Virus record (IMG/VR): IMGVR_UViG_3300032092_000005
Location: 1-64,000 of that record
Strand: one strand, 5' to 3'
Length of the DNA stretch: 64,000 nt
Source of the DNA: a virus
Position numbers and translations under genes: made by a program. Below the pieces are notes generated by a model. It ran no database searches. It was not told where the DNA came from and saw only the letters and a list, made by a program, of their open reading frames with translations. Each line of letters opens with the position of its first letter. Position 1 is the first letter of the stretch. This document shows, piece after piece, positions 3,616 through 42,699 of the stretch.

Positions 3616-5910
3616 ATGGCAGATTTAAAAACACAATTTGGATTTACAGATAGTCTATTTGACGCAATCAATGAAGTAAAAAAAGCTTCAGGTACTAGTC
3701 TTGCTGGCGCTGATGCGCAGATCAAAAGAGCAAAAGCAAATTTAGATGCGGCAGAATTAAGAGCAAGCCATGAAAAAGAACGCGAAAAAGTTCAAAAGAA
3801 AAAAGAATCTCTCCGTACAGAAGAAGTTGAAGAAACCTCAGAAAAGTTTGATCCTCTTAAGCACGTTAAGAATCCTACATCAGGCGAAAAGAAAGCAGCT
3901 AAAGATGTAAAGCGTAGTAGTTATGCTGACCGTGCAGCTATGTTAAAATCAGCACAAGCAGGCGGTAGACTGAAAGAAGAAGAAGAAGTTGAAGAAGAAA
4001 GTCACCAGTCTAAGACTACAATGAAGCACATTAACAATCCAAATGCTGCTGAAAAGAAAGCTGCTAAAGATATCAAGCCTGGTATTAAAGGTGTTAAAGA
4101 TAGATTGGATATGCTCAAAGCTGCAAAGGCACGCGGCGCTTTGAAAGAAGAAGAGCTAGAAGAATCGTTTAGTCCTTCACAAATTGCAGCACTGAAAAAA
4201 GAATACTCTAAGATTAATGGTATTGATCCTTCAAGCGATAACTACAAAAAGCTAATCGCTATGCTAGACAAATTAGACTTAGCTTCATTGAAGTCACTAG
4301 CTGGCGCTGATATCAAGTTTGTTTCTAGTCTTGCTAAGAATCGTGTTATGAGAAAGAGCATGAAGAAAGAAGAAGTTGAGATTGAAGAGGGCACTGGCGA
4401 TCTAAAACCAGGATGGATGCTAAAGAAAGATCCAGAGTTGGCTAAGAAAGTAAAAGAAAAACAAGACTTAGCTAAGAAACGAGAAGCTTCATACGGCGAC
4501 AAGTCTGCTGGAAAGTCTGTAGCAGAAGGCATCATGGACAAGATCAAGGCAGTAAAGCGTGGTATGGATGCTAAAGCTAAAGCTGATGATCATTTTGACA
4601 AAGCTGGTGATCCAAAAAATCCAAATAAATCTAAAGACTTGAAACGCGCAGTTAAGTACCATAACTTAGTCAACAAAGAAGAGACTGAGATTGAAGAAGA
4701 ATTGTCTCCGGCACAAAAAGCAATTGATAAGAACAAGAATGGTAAGATTGATGGGACTGACTTGGCACATCTACGTAGCAAAAAGAAACAACCTCAAGGT
4801 GCCGAATTTGCTGCTGCAAGACGCAAAGAAAGAATGGCATCAAATGGTCGTATGGATGAAGAAGTTAAAGTTGGAGACAAAGTTAGCTTTGATCATGAGA
4901 TGAAAGCGATTCCTGGCAAGACTATGAAAAAGATAGGAACAGTACACAAAGTTGAAGACGGCACTGTACACATTAAAGTTAAAGATAAATATGGCGTGAT
5001 AACTCATAAGAAAAGTGCAAGCGAACTAACTAAAGAAGAGTTTGAGTCTATTGACGAAGCGCCAAAGTACGACAACAAATATACAATCTATCACAAAGAC
5101 TATTCTAGCGCAGTTCAACATGCAGCAGTTCATGCTGGCAAACAAGGTTATGAAATCGACCATGATGATTGGGACCGTGTAGTTGCAATGGGTCCTAAGA
5201 AGCCTTCTGCTGGCAAGACAAATATTTTAAATGTGTCGCTAAAGAAAGACGGCAAAGAATCTAAGAAGAAACTTCATATGCAAGTCTACAATATGGACAA
5301 CAAAGGCTATGAGTTAAATACATACGTTGAAGAGATGGAGCAAGGTGTGGCAGAAGGCTTAATAAAAGATATCAAGCGTTTGGCTACAGGTAAAGATGTT
5401 AAGAGTCGTGCTGGACAAGAAATAGCCAAATCACAAGATGCCAGTATGAAAGGCGATACTAAAACTTCTAAAAAGCATTTTGGCCGTTTTGACAAGTTAG
5501 ATAAGTTAGCAAATAAAGAGCAAGGTGTGGCGGAAGAAGTTCAAGAATTAGATGAGTTGAACAAAGACACTGTATATTCATACGCAAAGAAGTCTGAAAA
5601 AGATCAAGATGATCAAGAGAAAAAAATGGATAAAGCATTCAAAGCTAATGATCCAAAAAAAGCTAATGATGCAGGCAGAAAGTTTCTGAATAGATTAAAA
5701 GGTTCAGAACGTGCTGAGAAAAGATTGAACAAAGAAGAAGTTGAACTAGACGAAGCAGCAAAGCAGCCTACAAAAAGATTCAAAGATATGAAAAAGAAAA
5801 ACACTGCTGGAACTAAATCGGAAGAAGGCGCAAGCAAAAAAGGTGAACCTTTAAGCGGCAAGAAAGAAGCTATCGAAGTTAATCCAGAATTGCATAAGAA
5901 TCAAAAGTAA
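3616..5910 (+). CDS. Lys/Glu-rich modular putative internal head polyprotein
   Basis: Basic modules separated by IEE/LEE/VAE/LDE acidic linkers; EF-hand-like DKNKNGKIDGTD. Confidence 0.55.
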   Translation: MADLKTQFGFTDSLFDAINEVKKASGTSLAGADAQIKRAKANLDAAELRASHEKEREKVQKKKESLRTEEVEETSEKFDPLKHVKNPTSGEKKAAKDVKRSSYADRAAMLKSAQAGGRLKEEEEVEEESHQSKTTMKHINNPNAAEKKAAKDIKPGIKGVKDRLDMLKAAKARGALKEEELEESFSPSQIAALKKEYSKINGIDPSSDNYKKLIAMLDKLDLASLKSLAGADIKFVSSLAKNRVMRKSMKKEEVEIEEGTGDLKPGWMLKKDPELAKKVKEKQDLAKKREASYGDKSAGKSVAEGIMDKIKAVKRGMDAKAKADDHFDKAGDPKNPNKSKDLKRAVKYHNLVNKEETEIEEELSPAQKAIDKNKNGKIDGTDLAHLRSKKKQPQGAEFAAARRKERMASNGRMDEEVKVGDKVSFDHEMKAIPGKTMKKIGTVHKVEDGTVHIKVKDKYGVITHKKSASELTKEEFESIDEAPKYDNKYTIYHKDYSSAVQHAAVHAGKQGYEIDHDDWDRVVAMGPKKPSAGKTNILNVSLKKDGKESKKKLHMQVYNMDNKGYELNTYVEEMEQGVAEGLIKDIKRLATGKDVKSRAGQEIAKSQDASMKGDTKTSKKHFGRFDKLDKLANKEQGVAEEVQELDELNKDTVYSYAKKSEKDQDDQEKKMDKAFKANDPKKANDAGRKFLNRLKGSERAEKRLNKEEVELDEAAKQPTKRFKDMKKKNTAGTKSEEGASKKGEPLSGKKEAIEVNPELHKNQK

Positions 5911-6401
5911 TGGACAAGCTGCCGCAGATATACTGTGACATGGACCAAGTCCTTGTCAATCTCATTGGAGGAGCTAACGAAGTCTTACGTGCGCGTGGAC
6001 TTCCAAACTTTCCTGAAGCAGATAAAGAAGAAAAGTGGAATGCACTAAAAAGCGTTCCTAAGTTTTGGGCTAATTTAAAGCCAATGCCTGACGGCCTTTT
6101 ATTATGGAAATTCATTCGTCAACACAATGCGTGGATTCTGTCTACGCCTTCAAGACGTATGGAAACGTGTAGACCTGAAAAGATTGAGTGGGTCAGAAAA
6201 AACCTAGGTAATGTCGAGCATATTTATTTGGTACCAAGAGAAGACAAGCAAAAATTTGCAATGACTGAAGATGGTAAACCAAATCTATTGATTGACGATC
6301 ACATTAAAAACATTAATGAATGGGAATCAAAAGGTGGTATAGGTATTCGTCATATAAATACAATGAAGACAATTTCACAACTAAGAAAATTAGGATACTA
6401 A
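5910..6401 (+). CDS. HAD-family 5'(3')-deoxyribonucleotidase-like protein
   Basis: IYCDMDQVL motif I, K..W, LIDD..KNI..W...GGIGI. Confidence 0.85.
   Translation: MDKLPQIYCDMDQVLVNLIGGANEVLRARGLPNFPEADKEEKWNALKSVPKFWANLKPMPDGLLLWKFIRQHNAWILSTPSRRMETCRPEKIEWVRKNLGNVEHIYLVPREDKQKFAMTEDGKPNLLIDDHIKNINEWESKGGIGIRHINTMKTISQLRKLGY
6353..6360 (+). promoter_or_regulatory. T4-type late promoter TATAAATA
   Basis: Exact consensus ~55 nt upstream of 6417 start. Confidence 0.65.
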
Positions 6402-35527: not shown

Positions 35528-35629
35528 GTGACTTAAAAACAACACTTCTTAAAAAAAGTGTTGACAACCAAGAAGATGCATGTTATCATACGTGTATCGA
35601 TTGAGAAATCAATCACTTGCTCCTTAACA
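35528..35629 (+). promoter_or_regulatory. tRNA-array promoter with boxB-like hairpin and boxA
   Basis: TTGACA-17-TATCAT (extended TG); GATTGA-GAAA-TCAATC; TGCTCCTTAACA. Confidence 0.7.
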
Positions 35630-35649: not shown

Positions 35650-35723
35650 TCCCGAGTAGTGTAGTGGTAACACACCAGACTTTGACTCTGTTATTGTAAG
35701 TTCGATTCTTACCTCGGGTGCCA
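35650..35723 (+). tRNA. tRNA-Gln(TTG)
   Basis: Cloverleaf, CT-TTG-AC loop, TTCGA, CCA. Confidence 0.9.
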
Positions 35724-35725
35724 GT

Positions 35726-35800
35726 GGTGATATAGCACAGTGGAAGTGCAACTCCTTCATACGGAGTAGGTCGTTGGTTCGAATCCAACTATCACCACCA
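35726..35800 (+). tRNA. tRNA-Met(CAT)
   Basis: GGTGATA/TATCACC, TT-CAT-AC loop, CCA. Confidence 0.85.
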
Positions 35801-35840
35801 TATAAAAACACATTCCTATTTTTAGTGTGTTTCTATATGG

Positions 35841-35959
35841 TTGACATGCAATCATTACCGTGTTACAATAACACATCAACAAAAAAAGGAAGCGACATGA
35901 AACGTTCAGGTAAACGATAGTGTCAACTTTTGATCCCATGTATGGTCTTAAGTTGGCAC
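35841..35959 (+). promoter_or_regulatory. Promoter + minigene MKRSGKR (35897-35920) + hairpin
   Basis: TTGACA-17-TACAAT; AGGA SD; GTGTCAACTT/AAGTTGGCAC stem. Confidence 0.65.
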
Positions 35960-35986
35960 GTAAAAGAAAATTCAATACGTAACAAC

Positions 35987-36060
35987 CACTCTAAACTTTG
36001 GCGGTGAAGTCCTGCCTCTTAAGCAGCGAGAATTGAGTTCGAATCTCAAAGAGTGGACCA
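35987..36060 (+). tRNA. tRNA-Lys(CTT), atypical D-arm
   Basis: CCACTCT/AGAGTGG, CT-CTT-AA loop, TTCGAAT, ACCA. Confidence 0.8.
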
Positions 36061-36065
36061 TACAT

Positions 36066-36141
36066 GGGATCGTGGTGAAATGGTTATCACAGCAGACTTT
36101 TAATCTGCCAGTTTCGGGTTCGAGTCCCGGCGGTCCTACCA
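36066..36141 (+). tRNA. tRNA-Lys(TTT)
   Basis: GCAGA-CTTTTAA-TCTGC, CCA. Confidence 0.92.
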
Positions 36142-36225
36142 TATAAAAACACATTAAGCACCTCGTACGGTGTTAGGGAAGTTCATGCATGGCGACTCGG
36201 CGCAGGCTATAATGTGTTTCTATAT

Positions 36226-36300
36226 GGTGACGTTAGTTTAGTGGCAAAACCGCGGGTTGTGATTCCGCTATCATGGGTTCGATTCCCATACGACACCCCA
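36226..36300 (+). tRNA. tRNA-His(GTG)
   Basis: G-1, TT-GTG-AT loop, C73-CCA. Confidence 0.88.
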
Positions 36301-36311
36301 AAGATTTTTAT

Positions 36312-36386
36312 GCCTCGTTAGCTCAGTGGTAGAGCAGTGCTTTTACACGGCGAAGGTCGGCAGTTCGAAACTGTCACGAGGTACCA
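36312..36386 (+). tRNA. tRNA-Val(TAC)
   Basis: TT-TAC-AC loop, CCA. Confidence 0.88.
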
Positions 36387-36391
36387 ATAAT

Positions 36392-36467
36392 GCCAGGATA
36401 GCTCAGTTGGTAGAGCACTTGTTTGAAGCACAAGGTGTGGGCGGTTCGATCCCGTCTCCTGGTACCA
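36392..36467 (+). tRNA. tRNA-Phe(GAA)
   Basis: CTTGT-TTGAAGC-ACAAG, CCA. Confidence 0.88.
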
Positions 36468-36477
36468 GAAATGATAT

Positions 36478-36552
36478 GTGCCTTTAGTAAAATGGATATT
36501 ACACAACGCTACGAACGTTGGAGTGGGAGTTCGATTCTCTCAGGGCGCACCA
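36478..36552 (+). tRNA. tRNA-Arg(ACG)
   Basis: CAACG-CTACGAA-CGTTG, CCA. Confidence 0.9.
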
Positions 36553-36562
36553 AGAGATATAT

Positions 36563-36654
36563 GGAAGATGATGCAGCGGGGTTGGTCCTGCGACTGGCCT
36601 TGAAAACCAGGTTCTCAGAAATGGGATGGGGTTCGACTCCTCCGTCTTCCGCCA
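36563..36654 (+). tRNA. tRNA-Ser(TGA)
   Basis: CT-TGA-AA loop, long variable arm, GCCA. Confidence 0.88.
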
Positions 36655-36655
36655 G

Positions 36656-36695
36656 TTGACAATGAAGCTTGATTGTGATACAATAGCTTCATTGT
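36656..36695 (+). promoter_or_regulatory. Promoter for Y-like RNA/DUF2828 unit, inside an 11-bp inverted repeat
   Basis: TTGACA-17-TACAAT; ACAATGAAGCT/AGCTTCATTGT. Confidence 0.7.
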
Positions 36696-36703
36696 AGAGT
36701 TTT

Positions 36704-36869
36704 AGGATAGGTACAGCAACCCACTAATACCGAATCGTTTAGTCACTGTGGTAAAAAACTGGAGTACGGAGTCTTGACCGAGTACGTTGAAGGTTTGACA
36801 CTGAAACATACTAAGCAAGGAGAGTTTCGATTTTCTCTCTGTAAACAAAAAGTAGACAACTATCCTGTT
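36704..36869 (+). ncRNA. Y-RNA-like scaffold 1
   Basis: AGGATAG/CTATCCT terminal stem, GTACAGCAA, internal T-arm-like hairpin. Confidence 0.65.
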
Positions 36870-36884
36870 ATATTTGAAAGTTTT

Positions 36885-37017
36885 AGGATCGGTACAGCAA
36901 CATTAATCTTTACTAAAAGATGGTTCGAGCTAGTTTAAGGCAATAACACCCTTATTTCTTGAACCCACGTGAGTTTCGAATTCTCACTCGAAAGAAAAAG
37001 TAGAAACCGATCCTGTT
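36885..37017 (+). ncRNA. Y-RNA-like scaffold 2
   Basis: AGGATCGGT/ACCGATCCT stem, GTACAGCAA, GTGAG-TTTCGAATT-CTCAC hairpin. Confidence 0.65.
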
Positions 37018-37024
37018 GTATTTT

Positions 37025-37149
37025 AGGTTAAGTTCCGCAAAACAAAATATGCAAACATAAACCGAAAGTCTGGTTCGATTCCAGCTAGGGCACGTAGTGT
37101 CTTAGTAGTGTAATGGCAGCACATTGGTACGCAAAAAGTTTAACCTGTT
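37025..37149 (+). ncRNA. YrlA-like RNA (scaffold 3 with circularly permuted tRNA domain)
   Basis: AGGTTAA/TTAACCT stem; T-arm, closed acceptor hairpin, D-arm in permuted order. Confidence 0.75.
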
Positions 37150-37167
37150 GATTTGAAAGGAAATATT

Positions 37168-38607
37168 ATGTCAACATTTGTAGAAGCCGTAGTAAACCAA
37201 GAAGCCCGTACTGCCAATGGCATGAAGGCACGTAAGTCCACTGCTAATGCGGTTGTAGATTTATTCTACAATGCAGGTGCAAGCCGTGGTAAGAATATTG
37301 TTCCTGCATTCGCAGCAGCATTTGCGCAAGACCGTGATCTAGCATTGCGCGTAGCCGCCTGGTTGCGTGATGTGCGTAGCGGTGCAGGTGAACGTCAATT
37401 GTTCCGTGATATCTTAGGGTATCTGGAAAACAATGATCGTGTAGCAGCAAAGGCACTTGTTGCAAAGGTTCCTGAATTGGGACGTTGGGATGACTTGTTC
37501 ATCTTCAATTCTAAGGAAATGAAGGAAGCAGCATACACATTGCTTGGTGACGCATTGCGTGAAAAGAATGGCCTTGCAGCTAAGTGGACACCTCGTCAAG
37601 GCAAGCTTGCAGCAGAAATTCGTACATTCTTCGGAATGTCGCCAAAGTTCTACCGCAAGTCTCTAGTTGAAATGACTAACGTTGTTGAAACTAACATGTG
37701 TGCAAAGGACTGGGACGGGATTAACTTCTCGCATGTTCCATCTGTAGCAGCATCGCGGTACAAGAAGGCATTCAACCGTAACACTCCAGCTTATGCAGCA
37801 TACGTTGCAGAGTTGATGAAGGATCCAAAAGATCGTACAGTTGAAGTGAAGGTTAATGCTGGTGCAGTGTACCCATATGATGTACTGAAAGGTCGCATCT
37901 CTGGTTATGGTGTGTCGTTTGACAAGACAGAATTGGATCTGATCCAAAAGCAATGGGAAGCACTACCTAACTTTGTTGGGGATGCAAACATTCTGCCTTT
38001 GGTTGACGTTTCTGGTTCTATGACTTGTCCAGCAGGTGGATCAGGCTCAAAGTCTAAGCTGACTTGCCTGGAAGTTGCAGTCTCTCTGGGATTGTATCTT
38101 GCAGACAAGAACAAGGGTAAGTTCAAGGATACGTTCTTGACTTTTTCTAACAAGCCAGAGTTGATGACTTTGAAGGGCAACATCAATGAGAAGATCAGCC
38201 AAATGGTTTCTTCTGATTGGGGAATGACTACTGACTTGAATCGTGCGTTTGACAAAATCCTTAGTGTAGCAATTAAGGGCAATGTGCCAAACAGTGAAAT
38301 GCCAGAAATGTTGCTGATCCTTTCGGACATGCAATTCAATTCTTGTGTTGCACATGACGATTCGGCTATCGAAATGATGGCACGTAAGTACGAAGCAGCA
38401 GGATACGCCTTACCAAAGGTTGTGTTCTGGAACTTGAATGCTGCATACGGCAATGCGCCTGTGAAGTTTGACAAGTCTGGCACTGCATTGGTTTCGGGGT
38501 TCTCTCCAGCCATTGTTAAGCCTCTGCTATCTGGCGACATGGAAGACTTTTCACCAGAGGCTGTGATGTTGAAGACAATCATGGATGACCGTTATACTGT
38601 GATTTAA
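37168..38607 (+). CDS. DUF2828-family helical + vWA protein (Ro60/TROVE-like)
   Basis: RDVR.G.GER..FR, GRWDDL, AAKW.PR, FS.VPS.A, DVSGSM MIDAS, SDMQF, VFWNL. Confidence 0.85.
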   Translation: MSTFVEAVVNQEARTANGMKARKSTANAVVDLFYNAGASRGKNIVPAFAAAFAQDRDLALRVAAWLRDVRSGAGERQLFRDILGYLENNDRVAAKALVAKVPELGRWDDLFIFNSKEMKEAAYTLLGDALREKNGLAAKWTPRQGKLAAEIRTFFGMSPKFYRKSLVEMTNVVETNMCAKDWDGINFSHVPSVAASRYKKAFNRNTPAYAAYVAELMKDPKDRTVEVKVNAGAVYPYDVLKGRISGYGVSFDKTELDLIQKQWEALPNFVGDANILPLVDVSGSMTCPAGGSGSKSKLTCLEVAVSLGLYLADKNKGKFKDTFLTFSNKPELMTLKGNINEKISQMVSSDWGMTTDLNRAFDKILSVAIKGNVPNSEMPEMLLILSDMQFNSCVAHDDSAIEMMARKYEAAGYALPKVVFWNLNAAYGNAPVKFDKSGTALVSGFSPAIVKPLLSGDMEDFSPEAVMLKTIMDDRYTVI

Positions 38608-38625
38608 AAATCTAAGTATAACTCC

Positions 38626-38650
38626 GAGGATTCGAAAGAGTCCTCATTTT
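38626..38650 (+). terminator. Hairpin/terminator after DUF2828 gene
   Basis: GAGGATTC-GAAA-GAGTCCTC then ATTTT. Confidence 0.55.
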
Positions 38651-38687
38651 GAAGTGTGCTGATAGTGCATTTCAAAATGAAAAATAA

Positions 38688-38775
38688 GGAAGACTCCCAT
38701 AATGGTATTGGAGCGGCTTGCTAAGCCGTCGGTCGTTAAATCGGCTTCGGGGTTCGAGTCCCCGGTCTTCCGCCA
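38688..38775 (+). tRNA. tRNA-Ser(GCT)
   Basis: TT-GCT-AA loop, long variable arm, GCCA. Confidence 0.9.
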
Positions 38776-38851
38776 TACACAATGTACGCTATAATGTACA
38801 TTAACAGTGGTTTTTGTTCATAATGGGCGTTTTTATGCCTCTTATGACAGT

Positions 38852-38955
38852 GTTGTATTTTTGCAACAGACACAAAAAAAGTGTTGACAAATCTTCTGAT
38901 CCTGTTATACTAGATTCTGTTGAGTTGATAGTGATTCAACAAAAGTTCTTTAAAA
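38852..38955 (+). promoter_or_regulatory. Second tRNA-array promoter with hairpin and boxA
   Basis: GTTG-N8-CAAC, TTGACA-16-TATACT, GTTGAG/TTCAAC hairpin, AGTTCTTTAAAA. Confidence 0.7.
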
Positions 38956-38972
38956 AGTTAAGTGTGATTTTT

Positions 38973-39047
38973 GCTCAGTTCGACTATCGGTCAGGTCGCT
39001 AGACTTTCAATCTGGAAAGACGGGTTCGACTCCCGTACTGAGCACCA
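38973..39047 (+). tRNA. tRNA-Glu(TTC)
   Basis: CT-TTC-AA loop, CCA. Confidence 0.9.
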
Positions 39048-39163
39048 TATTAAAGCATATTTCAGGTTGGGCTAGATTCGCGGTTTAGCTATTTGGGTAT
39101 CATGGACTAGGTAATTACTAGCACCGGTACTAAGATACGAAATGTGTTTTAATATGGTAGTTT

Positions 39164-39240
39164 GCCCTGGTGACGGAATTGGTATACGTACTGGTCTTAG
39201 AAACCAGGTTTTGCGAGTTCGAGTCTCGCCTAGGGCACCA
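39164..39240 (+). tRNA. tRNA-Leu(TAG), short variable loop
   Basis: CTGGT-CTTAGAA-ACCAG, ACCA. Confidence 0.88.
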
Positions 39241-39252
39241 AAAGTATTTTAT

Positions 39253-39329
39253 GCGTCTGTAATTCAATTGGACAGAAATTCAGTCTTCGAAACTGAAAGT
39301 TGGGAGTTCGAATCTCTCTAGACGCACCA
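39253..39329 (+). tRNA. tRNA-Arg(TCG)
   Basis: TCAGT-CTTCGAA-ACTGA, CCA. Confidence 0.88.
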
Positions 39330-39423
39330 AATTAAAACATACTGCTTGCCTGACTGCAAAAGTCGTGGTAAACTACAAGAGAAAGAGGTTCGAATCCTCG
39401 GGACTGGTAGTGTGTTTTAATTT

Positions 39424-39498
39424 GGGCTGATGGTATAATTGGGAACACAGTGGCCTTGCAAGTCACAGTTGGGGGTTCGATTCCCCCTCGGTCCACCA
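39424..39498 (+). tRNA. tRNA-Ala(TGC)
   Basis: G3:U70, CT-TGC-AA loop, CCA. Confidence 0.9.
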
Positions 39499-39499
39499 A

Positions 39500-39692
39500 A
39501 TCTCGTTACTACTTTCGTTAAAGTAGCGTTTGATTAGCGATAGAGATCCGGTGGCAGAAAACCGTTAGCGAGGTCAAACTCAGGCTCTGATAGGCAGAAT
39601 CTCAACTGCACACAGACACACAGAATAAATGGAGATGGACAGAGTAACTGCTCAATTAAGGGCTGGCGTAGAACCCAGTAGCTTATCCTATT
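39500..39692 (+). ncRNA. Unidentified ~190-nt structured RNA
   Basis: No convincing ORF; several nested stems and possible pseudoknots, between two tRNAs. Confidence 0.5.
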
Positions 39693-39695
39693 TAA

Positions 39696-39770
39696 GGCTC
39701 GTTCATATAATGGTCATTATCGCGGATTGTCTATCCGTAGATGGGAGTTCGATTCTCCCACGAGTCGCCA
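39696..39770 (+). tRNA. tRNA-Asp(GTC)
   Basis: TT-GTC-TA loop, GCCA. Confidence 0.9.
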
Positions 39771-39778
39771 GTTTTAAT

Positions 39779-39852
39779 CCTCCGTTAGCTCAATGGTAGA
39801 GCAATCGGCTGATAACCGATAGACAGAAGTTCAATTCTTCTACAGAGGACCA
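39779..39852 (+). tRNA. tRNA-Ile(GAT)
   Basis: ATCGG-CTGATAA-CCGAT, ACCA. Confidence 0.88.
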
Positions 39853-39863
39853 AAAAGTATTTC

Positions 39864-39947
39864 GGAGTGAATGGAACAATGGTGTTCTAGCCGGCTGTAA
39901 CCCGGTGGCCTTCGGGCAGGTAGGTTCGATCCCTACTCACTCCACCA
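39864..39947 (+). tRNA. tRNA-Tyr(GTA)
   Basis: CT-GTA-AC loop, variable arm, ACCA. Confidence 0.88.
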
Positions 39948-39953
39948 GATTTT

Positions 39954-40016
39954 AGAATGCGTTCAGCAAAAAAATACATTGAACTTTTAATTCAAACCGT
40001 AAAAAAGCATTCTGTT
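39954..40016 (+). ncRNA. Y-RNA-like scaffold 4 with Lys-UUU anticodon arm
   Basis: AGAATGC/GCATTCT stem, GTTCAGCAA, TTGAA-CTTTTAA-TTCAA. Confidence 0.65.
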
Positions 40017-40038
40017 GTTTACATATATAATACGTTGT

Positions 40039-40114
40039 GTACGTGTGCGCCGAACGGCTAGGTAGCGGATTGCAAATCCGTATAATGCAGGTTCGAATCC
40101 TGTCACGTACTCCA
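40039..40114 (+). tRNA. tRNA-Cys(GCA)
   Basis: TT-GCA-AA loop, U73-CCA. Confidence 0.88.
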
Positions 40115-40128
40115 CACAAAAGATTTAT

Positions 40129-40207
40129 TCCGTAGAACCCGAGCATGGTGCATGGGCTTGACTGTTAATCAATGTTTAGCTGGGATCGTTACCCAGATAC
40201 GGAGCCA
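40129..40207 (+). tRNA. tRNA-Asn(GTT), atypical T-loop
   Basis: CT-GTT-AA loop, GCCA; T-loop ATCGTTA. Confidence 0.8.
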
Positions 40208-40217
40208 AAAGTTATAT

Positions 40218-40293
40218 TGCGGGTAGTGCCCAGTCAACAGTCCAGTCTCATAAGCTCGGATCATCGGAGGTGCGAATCCTTCACCCGCAACCA
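40218..40293 (+). tRNA. tRNA-(f)Met(CAT), degenerate D-arm
   Basis: TGCGGGT/ACCCGCA, CT-CAT-AA loop, ACCA. Confidence 0.7.
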
Positions 40294-40298
40294 GTTTT

Positions 40299-40356
40299 AG
40301 GATCAGTTCAGCAAACTTAAAAATTTCTCTTGTTCGGAAAAAAAGTTGATCCTGTT
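40299..40356 (+). ncRNA. Y-RNA-like scaffold 5
   Basis: AGGATCA/TGATCCT stem, GTTCAGCAA, TTTCT-CTTGTTC-GGAAA. Confidence 0.6.
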
Positions 40357-40363
40357 GTTTTTC

Positions 40364-40437
40364 GCCCTATTAGTATAATGGTATTACACCTGTTTTGTAA
40401 TCAGGTTACGGCAGTTCGATTCTGTCATGGGGCACCA
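40364..40437 (+). tRNA. tRNA-Thr(TGT)
   Basis: TT-TGT-AA loop, ACCA. Confidence 0.88.
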
Positions 40438-40447
40438 AGTCATTTTT

Positions 40448-40521
40448 GCGGGGTTCATTTAATGGTAGGATTTCAGCCTTCCAAGCTGATAGTGCGAGTT
40501 CGATTCTCGCACCCCGCTCCA
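40448..40521 (+). tRNA. tRNA-Gly(TCC)
   Basis: CT-TCC-AA loop, TCCA. Confidence 0.9.
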
Positions 40522-40528
40522 ATATTTT

Positions 40529-40602
40529 CTCGGTGTGGTGAAATGGTATCACTCTTGGTTTGGGACCAAGGAGCGCAAGTTCGATTCTTGCCACCGAGAC
40601 CA
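40529..40602 (+). tRNA. tRNA-Pro(TGG)
   Basis: TT-TGG-GA loop, ACCA. Confidence 0.9.
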
Positions 40603-40610
40603 CAAGTTTT

Positions 40611-40673
40611 AGGATAGTTACAGCAAAAAACAAAGCTAACTATTGGTTGTCTAGCGACAAAAGCTATCCTGTT
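40611..40673 (+). ncRNA. Y-RNA-like scaffold 6
   Basis: AGGATAG/CTATCCT stem, TTACAGCAA. Confidence 0.6.
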
Positions 40674-40688
40674 GTTTAATGAGGCTAT

Positions 40689-41234
40689 ATGAAAAAATGT
40701 CCAAAGTGTAATAGTACACATGAAAAAAATGGAAATTTTTGTTCCAGAAAGTGTGGTAATTCTAGGACATGGTCTGAAGAAGATAAGAAAAAAAAATCAG
40801 ATTCTGCTAAAAAATACTACGATGAAAATGTCCACCCAGGATTAGGAAAACCTGGATGGAAACATAGTGATGAACAGAAATTACTCAAAAAGAAATTGTC
40901 TCTTGAAATGTGGGATAAAATTGGTAGAAAATCGTCTGAGCATTATAGACTTGCAAATATTCACACAGTAAACAAATACAGAGCAAGAAGGTATGATGCT
41001 ATAACCGAATCTACAGACTTAAATCTAATTAAAGAGATTTATAAGTACTGTCCTAAAGGTTATGAAGTTGACCATATAATAGCTCTTGCATGTGAAGGCG
41101 AACATCATCAAGATAATTTACAATACCTTCCAGCAATAGAAAATAGAAAGAAAAACAAAACACAAAATTATAACAAGGATCTTGCCGTTCGTTGGCAAGA
41201 TGTATTAAAAATAAGTACAAGGAGTTCACTATGA
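40689..41234 (+). CDS. HNH endonuclease (putative homing endonuclease)
   Basis: CPKC..FCSRKC; EVDHII.L..G.H..DNLQ.L....NRKK. Confidence 0.8.
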   Translation: MKKCPKCNSTHEKNGNFCSRKCGNSRTWSEEDKKKKSDSAKKYYDENVHPGLGKPGWKHSDEQKLLKKKLSLEMWDKIGRKSSEHYRLANIHTVNKYRARRYDAITESTDLNLIKEIYKYCPKGYEVDHIIALACEGEHHQDNLQYLPAIENRKKNKTQNYNKDLAVRWQDVLKISTRSSL

Positions 41235-41476
41235 GTAATGACGAAAAAGGTTCTAAGGCAAGACCGTTCAGCGTGTCTCAGCATGAATATGATACAAGAT
41301 GGGATGCAATTTTCGCAAGAGAATTGCAAGAAAAAGCACTTGATGAATTAGTTCGTGAAAGCGAACGATTAGGACTTTATGATATTCCTATTGTAGAAAA
41401 AGATTTTATAAATGCTAATACAATTTTAGAAATGCCCGGAACAATCGGTAGCGCAAAAGTTATTCTAAAAGGTTAA
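41231..41476 (+). CDS. Hypothetical protein
   Basis: GGAG SD; KGS..RP.SV...Y..RWDAIF. Confidence 0.55.
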   Translation: MSNDEKGSKARPFSVSQHEYDTRWDAIFARELQEKALDELVRESERLGLYDIPIVEKDFINANTILEMPGTIGSAKVILKG

Positions 41477-41477
41477 T

Positions 41478-42236
41478 ATGAGAATTGTGATTGTAACGGG
41501 CGGCTTTGATCCACTTCATAGTGGACATGTTGCTTACATTAAAGCAGCTAGAGAACTAGGCGACAAATTGATTGTCGGTATAAACTCTGATGAATGGCTA
41601 TCGCGCAAAAAGGGGCGTCCCTTTATGTCGTGGCAAGAACGTGCAACTATCGTTTCAGCTATCGCAGAGGTTGACAGAGTTATCTGTTTTAATGATGGTG
41701 ACAATACTGCAATTGATGCAATTCGAAAAGCTAAAAAGATTTTTCCTAATCATGATATCATCTTTGCAAATGGCGGTGACAGGACAAAAGAAAATATACC
41801 CGAAATGGTATTTGATGATGTAGAGTTTGTGTTCAGCGTTGGCGGTGATAACAAAGCGAATTCTTCTAGTTGGATTTTAGAAGAATGGAAAACACCTAAG
41901 ACAGAACGGACATGGGGTTACTATCGTGTACTGCATGAAGTCGGTTCACAGGTTAAACTAAAAGAGTTGACGGTAATGCCTAAAACATGTTTGAGTATGC
42001 AGAGACATGATCAACGTGCAGAGTTCTGGTTTGTAGCTGAAGGAGAAGCCACGGTGTACACCTTGAATGAAGCTTCAACTGATCAAGAAGTTAAATGTCA
42101 ATTAATTGCACATGAGCATACATTTATCAAAACAAACGAATGGCATCAATTATGTAATGAAACTACAGAGCCTTTAAAGCTCATTGAAATTCAATACGGC
42201 AAAGCTTGTATTGAAGAAGACATAGAACGGTTATAA
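41478..42236 (+). CDS. Cytidylyltransferase fused to mannose-6-P-isomerase-type cupin
   Basis: TGGFDPLHSGH, FANGGDR; R.WG.Y, LS.QRH..RAE.W, EIQ.G...EEDIER. Confidence 0.85.
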   Translation: MRIVIVTGGFDPLHSGHVAYIKAARELGDKLIVGINSDEWLSRKKGRPFMSWQERATIVSAIAEVDRVICFNDGDNTAIDAIRKAKKIFPNHDIIFANGGDRTKENIPEMVFDDVEFVFSVGGDNKANSSSWILEEWKTPKTERTWGYYRVLHEVGSQVKLKELTVMPKTCLSMQRHDQRAEFWFVAEGEATVYTLNEASTDQEVKCQLIAHEHTFIKTNEWHQLCNETTEPLKLIEIQYGKACIEEDIERL

Positions 42237-42239
42237 TAT

Positions 42240-42313
42240 ATCTCGCTAGTGTAACGGCAGCATACGGGTCTCCAAAACCCTTGGTGGGAGTTCGAATCTC
42301 TCGCGGGATGCCA
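42240..42313 (+). tRNA. tRNA-Trp(CCA)
   Basis: CT-CCA-AA loop, GCCA. Confidence 0.88.
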
Positions 42314-42319
42314 AATTTT

Positions 42320-42393
42320 GCGTGGTTAGTTAAATGGTAGAACCAAACGTTGCCAACGTTTAGACAGGAGTTCGATTCTCCTACCCCGCACCA
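42320..42393 (+). tRNA. tRNA-Gly(GCC)
   Basis: AAACG-TTGCCAA-CGTTT, CCA. Confidence 0.85.
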
Positions 42394-42448
42394 AAAACTC
42401 ACACTTGACAGAGTATCACTATGATGATACAATAGTCTATCAAATATT

Positions 42449-42523
42449 CTGGCGTTAGTACAATGGATAGTACAGTAGGCTTCTACCCTTCTAATGGGAG
42501 TTCGATTCTCTCACGCCGGACCA
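42449..42523 (+). tRNA. tRNA-Arg(TCT)
   Basis: CT-TCT-AC loop, CCA. Confidence 0.85.
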
Positions 42524-42530
42524 AAAATAT

Positions 42531-42616
42531 GCGAGTGTGGTGGAACGGTATACACAACAGACTTAAAATCTGTCGCCTTAACGGGCTTGCGGGTTCGAAT
42601 CCCGCCTCTCGCACCA
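42531..42616 (+). tRNA. tRNA-Leu(TAA)
   Basis: ACAGA-CTTAAAA-TCTGT, long variable arm. Confidence 0.9.
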
Positions 42617-42624
42617 AGTTTAGT

Positions 42625-42699
42625 GCCTTGGTAGCTTAATGGTAAAGCAGGCGACTCATAATCGCTTGAGTGGGAGTTCAATTCTCTCCCAAGGCACCA
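42625..42699 (+). tRNA. tRNA-Ile2/Met(CAT)
   Basis: GGCGA-CTCATAA-TCGCT, ACCA. Confidence 0.85.

Follow-up and report, generated by a model that had tools for sequence, protein, structure and literature searches.

Ro60 is a ring of helical (HEAT-like) repeats followed by a vWA domain; Y RNAs bind to its outer surface, and its central hole takes up the ends of misfolded RNAs. Ro60 proteins occur in bacteria and phages with adjacent Y RNAs (PMC4201824, PMC12135203), among which YrlA has the layout of a permuted tRNA, with a T arm, a capped acceptor-like stem and a D arm following one another (Chen et al. 2014, PMC4201824). A second described family, the Class I RNAs of Dictyostelium, consists of RNAs of ~60 nucleotides (nt) whose interiors vary and which have a CUGU tail and a terminal stem of 6 base pairs (bp) that shows compensatory changes; the motif CCUUACAGCAA lies by the 5' arm (Kjellin et al. 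2021, PMC7919456). These orphan RNAs have been reported as unique to Dictyostelia, and one of them, DdR-21, is reported to bind the RNA recognition motif (RRM) protein Rnp1A/Cibp (PMC7919456). The subject of the current report is a set of six elements, E1 to E6, that lie around a gene of the DUF2828 family in the genome of a lake-water phage. The window, by which we mean the whole stretch of DNA analysed, comprises 64,000 nt (positions 1 to 64,000 of IMG/VR record IMGVR_UViG_3300032092_000005) of a 152-kb viral record estimated to be 85% complete. We consider it likely, with a probability of roughly 70%, that the six elements are Y-RNA-like partner RNAs of the adjacent Ro60-like phage protein and that they combine a constant handle with tRNA-derived payloads; they would then be small non-coding RNA genes whose products partner the DUF2828 protein as Y RNAs partner Ro60.

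All six elements lie on the plus strand and have the same order of parts: UUUU, a 7-nt arm, NNN and C(A/C)GCAA make up the 5' side, and a variable interior separates these from an A-rich run, which is followed by the complementary arm and by GUU. The 7-bp stem is formed by the 5' and 3' ends of the element itself, and its arms differ between the copies and stay complementary. An original prediction, made by inspection of the window's letters, had placed six such elements in this region, and both their positions and their arm pairs, each between TTTT and GTT, proved to be exact. The features of the locus are given below together with their scores, where available, in covariance model R1, which was built from 66 short relatives with the 7-bp stem as its only structure.

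36656 to 36684, plus strand: candidate promoter of the unit E1-E2-E3-gene; TTGACA-17-TACAAT, TG-extended, 11/12 consensus positions
36700 to 36869, plus strand: E1 handle RNA; arms 36704-36710 and 36860-36866 (AGGATAG/CTATCCT), core GTACAGCAA, 3' connector AAAAAGTAGACAA, 163 nt from stem to stem
36881 to 37017, plus strand: E2 handle RNA; arms 36885-36891 and 37008-37014 (AGGATCG/CGATCCT), core GTACAGCAA, 130 nt; R1 40.5 bits, E 1e-6
37021 to 37149, plus strand: E3 handle RNA; arms 37025-37031 and 37140-37146 (AGGTTAA/TTAACCT), core GTTCCGCAA, 122 nt
37168 to 38607, plus strand: gene for the Ro60-like protein; 479 amino acids, Pfam DUF2828 and DUF7788, helical repeats and a vWA domain
38884 to 38911, plus strand: candidate promoter of the downstream tRNA unit with E4-E6; sigma-70-type, 11/12
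39950 to 40016, plus strand: E4 short handle RNA; arms 39954-39960 and 40007-40013 (AGAATGC/GCATTCT), core GTTCAGCAA, 60 nt; R1 74.4 bits
40295 to 40356, plus strand: E5 short handle RNA; arms 40299-40305 and 40347-40353 (AGGATCA/TGATCCT), core GTTCAGCAA, 55 nt; R1 66.7 bits
40607 to 40673, plus strand: E6 short handle RNA; arms 40611-40617 and 40664-40670 (AGGATAG/CTATCCT), core TTACAGCAA, 60 nt; R1 65.8 bits

The arrangement of a promoter followed by three elements and then by the DUF2828/vWA gene is as had been proposed, the promoter being a consensus match. E3 ends 21 nt upstream of the ATG of the gene and adjoins its ribosome-binding site. Of the three short elements, E4 starts 3 nt past the CCA of tRNA-Tyr and E5 is flanked on one side by tRNA-Thr and on the other by a weak tRNA-like element (40218-40290, 18 bits, missed by ARAGORN) whose ACCA end comes just before E5. 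E6 follows tRNA-Pro and ends 18 nt upstream of an open reading frame (ORF) of 181 amino acids (40689-41234) that is without a Pfam match; the spacing can be likened to that between E3 and the DUF2828 gene.

The resemblance of this locus to the Ro60/Rsr proteins with their Y RNAs (YrlA, or the Ro60 of phage phiLo with Yrl1 and Yrl2, PMC12135203) lies in a ring-type protein of helical repeats and a vWA domain, here modelled, in several small RNAs that adjoin the gene and are each closed by a stem of their own 5' and 3' ends, and in the combination of a conserved module on the side of the protein, here a presumed one, with a variable module on the effector side. It differs from those systems in that the protein belongs to DUF2828/DUF7788 and has no TROVE match, and in that each genome has a larger number of RNAs, whose payloads are more diverse and include anticodon-arm hairpins and whole tRNAs.

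The DUF2828 protein and its modelled fold

Apart from DUF7788 and DUF2828, the only Pfam match of the 479-amino-acid protein at E values up to 1 was a chance-level one to Ribonuc_L-PSP (E 0.09), and TROVE (PF05731) was not matched; the protein also matches PHROG 850 ('RNA-binding protein'). The suggestion in the original prediction that it is Ro60-like was upheld when an AlphaFold2 model, based on an alignment of 109 diverse sequences (predicted local distance difference test score 91.5, predicted template modelling score 0.89), was compared with the PDB by Foldseek. The top 12 entries were without exception Ro60, bacterial Rsr or the Ro60 of Thermus phage phiLo (E 2e-9 to 6e-7), led by 2i91, 1yvp, 9nfa, 9kop, 9l5y and 2nvo (E 2e-9 to 3e-7), and these Ro60-type matches extended over the whole length of the protein (~550 columns, template modelling scores 0.37-0.62, probability 1.00). 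Other vWA proteins appeared in the list from E 3e-3 on, with partial cover.

The residues of the vWA metal site, DxSxS..T..D (D280, S282, S284, T355 and D387), are invariant in the 109 sequences, and the family profile aligns this site to the DVSASM site of Ro60. At the level of sequence the connection is faint: the family profile ranked Ro60 first among the PDB sequences, weakly (E 0.036) and at the vWA metal site, and a search of the same sequences with the single protein gave chance matches only. The whole-length match to Ro60 structures and the aligned metal site, taken with the missing TROVE match, argue that the protein, as modelled, has a Ro60-type fold and belongs to a separate sequence family.

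Relatives of the protein make up about 6,000 protein clusters and are found in at least 711 sequenced phages. The DUF2828 clusters of the protein atlas are viral only, and this atlas is uninformative on Dictyostelium. Homologues in GenBank records of mycobacteriophages carry the label 'Ro-like RNA binding protein', and a preprint (PMC11482910) describes gp130 of the Felix O1-type phage Bas63 as having a Ro60-like fold and as countering the ppl defence system, with the guess that neighbouring 'tRNAs' are possible Y RNAs. We infer that Bas63 gp130 is a DUF2828 homologue, because the gene of the related phage wV8 occupies the identical position. The original prediction had presented the system as not described for this family. 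This part of it has to be divided: the Ro60-likeness of DUF2828 proteins is already known from the GenBank labels and the preprint (PMC11482910), whereas no publication that describes the RNAs was found in the literature on DUF2828, on the CAGCAA motif and on Ro60 and phage anti-defence, or in Rfam.

The handle and the tRNA parts that it carries

The conservation of the elements was followed in 80 viral contigs whose DUF2828 proteins are 67-90% identical to that of the window. On the gene strand, these contigs hold 186 distinct elements of the same design, pairing of the arms having been required in their collection, with 31 different arm-pair types and zero mismatches. Pairing of 100% in a set that was selected for pairing is partly a matter of construction, and the unbiased count is the one based on the 5' motif alone. 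When no pairing was asked for, this motif was found in the 80 contigs and the window at 153 distinct sites on the gene strand and at 0 on the opposite strand, and a perfect 7-bp partner followed by GTT lies within 350 nt of 145 of the 153 sites; the chance rate of such a partner is estimated at well under 1%. Changes on both sides were seen in 6 of the 7 stem pairs, which together with the motif-only count argues that the stem is an RNA structure maintained by selection, as judged from these sequence comparisons. The full covariation of the arms that had been noted for the six copies in the window extends in this way to their relatives.

The 5' pattern has 6 exact matches in the 64 kb, and 9 with up to two mismatches versus 0.59 expected by chance. 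A scan of the window with R1 returned all six elements and no other match, with E1 aligned in part because its insert is long; in a scan of the whole 152-kb record 5 of the 6 elements were recovered (E1 was missed), again with no other match. Annotated phages were also searched for near-identical DNA, which gave nothing useful. A reading of the copies as miniature inverted-repeat elements or transposons was rejected, as the arms vary yet remain complementary, all copies keep to one strand and target duplications are absent.

The stem is adjoined by a conserved asymmetric internal loop with NNN-CAGCAA on its 5' strand and the A-rich run on its 3' strand, and stem and loop together make up the constant handle, which would be the binding site of the protein. 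The phrase 'constant handle, variable payload', by which the original prediction characterized the elements, is a good description of their anatomy. Its statement that the interiors are unrelated needs correction. When compared across the relatives, the interiors are recurring classes of what appear to be tRNA-derived modules, and not simply unrelated sequence.

The class of short elements, to which E4, E5 and E6 belong, is represented by 80 distinct sequences with a small hairpin inside. A 7-nt loop on a stem of 4 bp or more can be formed in 66 of the 80, compared with a mean of 20 in shuffled sequences, and a loop with U at position 2 and a purine at position 6 (CUUGUAA or CUUUUAA, for example) in 50 of the 80, versus a shuffled mean of 3.8 and maximum of 10; both counts are inflated by kinship among the sequences. 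This pattern is that of an anticodon loop. Among the three short elements of the window a clean hairpin of this type, resembling an anticodon arm, is present in E4 only (5-bp stem TTGAA/TTCAA, 7-nt loop CTTTTAA).

The interior of E3 is arranged as a connector helix, a T arm (CTGG-TTCGATT-CCAG), a capped acceptor-like hairpin and a D arm (GTGT-AATGGCA-GCAC). E3 and 14 relatives share five helices, namely the closing stem, a 4-bp connector, the T arm with loop UUCGAUU, the capped hairpin and the D arm with loop AAUGGUA; in this fold 97.4% of the cells are paired and 11 pairs have changed on both sides, compared with 28-52% pairing in slid controls. We take E3 to be a permuted tRNA mimic. Relatives of ~100 nt carry a D arm, an anticodon arm and a T arm on a 3-bp acceptor stump. 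E1 and E2 are members of larger conserved payload classes with T-arm-like hairpins. The payload of E1 is large and conserved and has a helix of the form GGUA..CUGGAG-hairpin-UUGAAGG and the T-arm-like hairpin GAGAGTTTCGATTTTCTCTC; the consensus fold of its class, from 24 relatives, has 13 pairs with compensatory changes. That of E2 consists of nested hairpins and the T-arm-like hairpin GTGAGTTTCGAATTCTCAC. On the reading that we favour, the variable interior presents a part of a tRNA: E4 and most of the short relatives have a hairpin like an anticodon arm, E3 has a permuted 'elbow' of T arm, acceptor and D arm, and the larger folded domains of E1 and E2 include T-arm-like hairpins.

The likeness to YrlA is closest for E3 and its relatives, which have the same layout of T arm, capped hairpin and D arm, joined to the stem at the place of the anticodon arm; E4 to E6 are without this layout. 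The two differ at the end that faces the protein: YrlA has a Ro60-binding bulged helix and a GNCGAA motif, and the phage handle has the internal loop of CAGCAA and A-rich strand. As had been expected, Rfam holds no family for the motif: at permissive thresholds no family reached its cutoff on the six elements, on which YrlA (RF02553) gave no match at E up to 10, and the best score of the YrlA model on the relatives was 26.4 bits versus a cutoff of 69.

The sub-threshold matches of Rfam family RF01414, the Dictyostelium Class I RNA, follow the boundaries of the elements. On E5 the model aligns over its full length (1-56) at 40300-40354 of the window, with exact element boundaries and 21.7 bits, and on five relatives, one of which is in a Listeria phage, it aligns in full length on the boundaries with 22.8-36.4 bits (the best score being that at L010:1348-1400); all of these scores are below the cutoff of 41.5. 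The two groups of RNAs have in common a length of ~60 nt, a compensated terminal stem of 6-7 bp, the motif (CC)UUACAGCAA directly after the 5' arm, an A-rich run before the 3' arm, a CUGU-like tail and a variable interior. They differ in that the Class I RNAs belong to social amoebae and have a Dictyostelium upstream sequence element (DUSE) as a promoter ~60 nt upstream, whereas the present elements are those of a phage with sigma-70-type promoters and no DUSE, and in that many of the phage members have long tRNA-like inserts.

Association of the handle with DUF2828 genes in distant phages

A distant set of nine phage loci from different families (72.8 kb in total), whose proteins are 31-46% identical, was searched with a descriptor consisting of a 7-bp stem, 2-4 nt, CAGCAA and the partner arm within 260 nt. 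This descriptor matched the gene strand 27 times and the opposite strand 5 times, compared with 2.7 matches in shuffled sequences. The pairing of handle and DUF2828 gene was found in phages of Listeria, Staphylococcus, Mycobacterium, Campylobacter, Sinorhizobium, Escherichia coli, Cronobacter and Synechococcus, so that the link between motif and gene that the original prediction expected to be visible with a covariance model and a co-occurrence survey does hold across very different phages. Examples are the following:

Mycobacterium phage Finemlucis: 3 elements directly downstream of the gene; no tRNA cluster nearby
Listeria phage LMTA-94: 3 elements directly upstream of the gene
Staphylococcus phage S-CoN_Ph7: 3 elements directly downstream of the gene; no tRNA cluster beside it
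Campylobacter phage CP30A: 2 elements directly upstream of the gene
Sinorhizobium phage phiM7: 1 element at the ribosome-binding site and 1 after a tRNA
Synechococcus phage BUCT-ZZ01: 3 elements directly upstream of the gene
E. coli phage wV8: 4 elements in the tRNA cluster immediately after the gene, at downstream distances of 0.3-1.1 kb

We also note that an RtcB-type 'tRNA-splicing ligase' is encoded in Listeria phage LMTA-94 (L085:6849-8060), 1.3 kb downstream of the DUF2828 gene, a proximity that recalls the bacterial rsr-rtcB link.

In the window, E4 to E6 lie directly between tRNAs and start 3-5 nt past a CCA end, and all of the elements are on the tRNA strand within promoter-driven tRNA units. 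The same might be seen if the elements were spacers with a structural role in the tRNA operon, or signals for its processing, that guide or block ribonucleases in tRNA maturation, with the DUF2828 gene nearby through a shared preference for tRNA clusters as a habitat. We regard this as very unlikely, since in Finemlucis and S-CoN_Ph7 three elements each abut the gene without an adjoining tRNA cluster, since most tRNA junctions of the window and the tRNA cluster of phage T4 are without elements, and since a spacer would need neither an invariant CAGCAA loop nor elaborate interiors whose mimicry of tRNA is maintained by compensatory changes. Phage T4, whose tRNA cluster is free of handles, also lacks a DUF2828 gene. 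The T4 RNAs rnaC and rnaD (species 1 and 2) resemble the present elements as small stable RNAs of unknown role that are co-transcribed with phage tRNAs; they were considered as members of the family and rejected, as neither has the stem and CAGCAA handle and T4 has no DUF2828 gene.

A different form of the handle was found in Cronobacter phage S13 and in BUCT-ZZ01, where complete, CCA-ended tRNAs located next to the gene carry an insertion of ~40 nt between their D and anticodon arms. It consists of the A-rich strand, a stem of 5-6 bp with a loop as its cap, and WAUUCWGCA. None of the tRNAs in the window holds such an insertion. The tRNAs in question are:

Cronobacter phage S13, L081:5875-5995 and 6005-6117: closed-form tRNAs, annotated as a 121-nt 'tRNA-Ser' and a 'tRNA-OTHER'
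Synechococcus phage BUCT-ZZ01, L082, about 5580-5700 and 5711-5824: closed-form tRNAs

On comparison of the sequences, the closed form appears to be a circular permutation in which the handle has been kept and its open side swapped. It is what would be predicted if the handle were a binding module in its own right.

These closed forms bear also on the possibility that the handle is mainly a cis-acting operator, in which translation is controlled by binding of the protein, or of some other factor, to the copy that lies in the 5' leader of the protein's gene, with the other copies serving as titrating sites. One element does end 16-26 nt (about 22) before the DUF2828 start codon, by the ribosome-binding site, in most of the 80 related contigs, and phiM7, CP30A and BUCT-ZZ01 have an element in the corresponding place; the 18-nt distance of E6 from ORF 40689 is similar. 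As a full account of the elements we think this quite improbable: many copies lie among tRNAs or past the end of the gene, kilobases away from any such start, handles in the closed form occur inside complete tRNAs, and the tRNA-like payloads would be left unexplained. The operator reading is compatible with the elements being partner RNAs rather than an alternative to it, and the copy that abuts the ribosome-binding site may allow the protein to limit its own translation.

The likeness of the payloads to anticodon arms and tRNA elbows might instead mean that the elements are free-standing tRNA decoys or regulators with some other partner, such as a host protein or one of the RRM type, and that the DUF2828 protein has another job. 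The report on DdR-21 and Rnp1A/Cibp (PMC7919456) would fit such a view, as would the known ability of phage tRNAs to counter tRNA-cutting defences (10.1101/2023.03.15.532788). We consider this quite unlikely, in view of the tight and orientation-specific adjacency of the elements to the DUF2828 gene in phages of five bacterial phyla, which is best explained by joint function, and of the fact that the constant part of the elements is the handle and not the payload, which points to a single phage-encoded binder for all of them. All three of these alternatives fit the observations less well than does the explanation by partner RNAs.

There are nevertheless points that weigh against that explanation. 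The known Ro60-binding sequence of Y RNAs is not present in the handle, and the YrlA model stays below its threshold. The reported binder of a Class I RNA is an RRM protein and not a Ro-like one (PMC7919456). Acinetobacter phage ME3, as the sole such case of the nine distant loci, has the gene and no handle within 2.5 kb. A shared neighbourhood could account for part of the linkage, as the gene and the RNAs both tend toward tRNA regions. As to expression, contigs over E1-E3 and the gene are present with 99-100% identity in four lake-water metatranscriptome runs, and one contig (36613-37310, from a relative with 33 differences) spans E1 to the gene; these are contigs only, which carry no information on ends, strand or level and might include carried-over DNA, so that they amount to a weak hint of transcription.

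If the elements are indeed partner RNAs, their likely role would be to bring the ring protein to enzymes or nucleases that recognise tRNAs, where the particle might act as a decoy, a tether or a repair platform in a contest between phage and host over tRNAs. DUF2828 proteins are widespread in phages and have no established function, and a defined RNA partner would supply them with a concrete ligand and would establish the family as another branch, next to the known one, of the Ro60/Y-RNA particle. Such a partner would explain, too, why phage genomes contain unusual 'tRNA-OTHER' annotations and 'tRNA-Ser' genes of excessive length. That the payloads are parts of tRNAs points to a role in phage-host conflict over tRNAs, and the Ro60-like protein of a Felix O1-type phage is reported to counter a defence system (PMC11482910). 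The likeness to Class I RNAs could, in addition, give a long-missing lead on the role of those abundant RNAs in Dictyostelium. A broader proposal, which we put forward tentatively and consider rather doubtful, is that DUF2828-type Ro60 paralogues, in every organism that has them, have the stem-plus-CAGCAA handle as their cognate RNA ligand, that the Class I RNAs are the Y-RNA-like partners of a eukaryotic DUF2828 protein, and that the phage particle, through its tRNA parts or whole tRNAs, senses, shields or repairs tRNAs under attack by host defence nucleases.

Other features of the tRNA region

The elements and the DUF2828 gene are embedded in a region with 25 plus-strand tRNA genes (35650-42699). 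Four candidate promoters of the sigma-70 type, predicted by consensus match only, are found on the same strand (35561-35589, 35841-35869, 36656-36684 and 38884-38911); each matches 11 of 12 consensus positions and has the extended -10 TG, and they split the tRNA region into separate transcription units. The elements would be transcribed within the tRNA operon from two of these strong predicted promoters, and their release might be the work of the enzymes that also trim the neighbouring tRNAs. A Pfam search of 8 neighbouring ORFs found no RNA-repair genes. Upstream of E1, at 36563-36650, there is a tRNA-like element that was missed by ARAGORN and scores 35 bits with the tRNA-Sec model, below its cutoff; it is probably a tRNA with a long arm.

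Between tRNA-Ala and tRNA-Asp, the unannotated interval 39509-39678 is covered in two metatranscriptome runs by short contigs of high depth (126 and 178) with sequencing-adapter letters at their flanks, which suggests an abundant discrete RNA of ~170 nt; the interval has no Rfam match and no CAGCAA handle. A second family of scaffolds is represented by two elements, at 39050-39152 and 39334-39418, each of which has a long closing stem that is related to that of the other (TTAAAGCATATTTC...GAAATGTGTTTTAA and AAAACATACT...AGTGTGTTTT), the second element holding the T arm GAGGTTCGAATCCTC. One contig from an RNA library joins 39330 to 39419 and in this way omits exactly the second of these elements, which could reflect either a strain variant or an excision.

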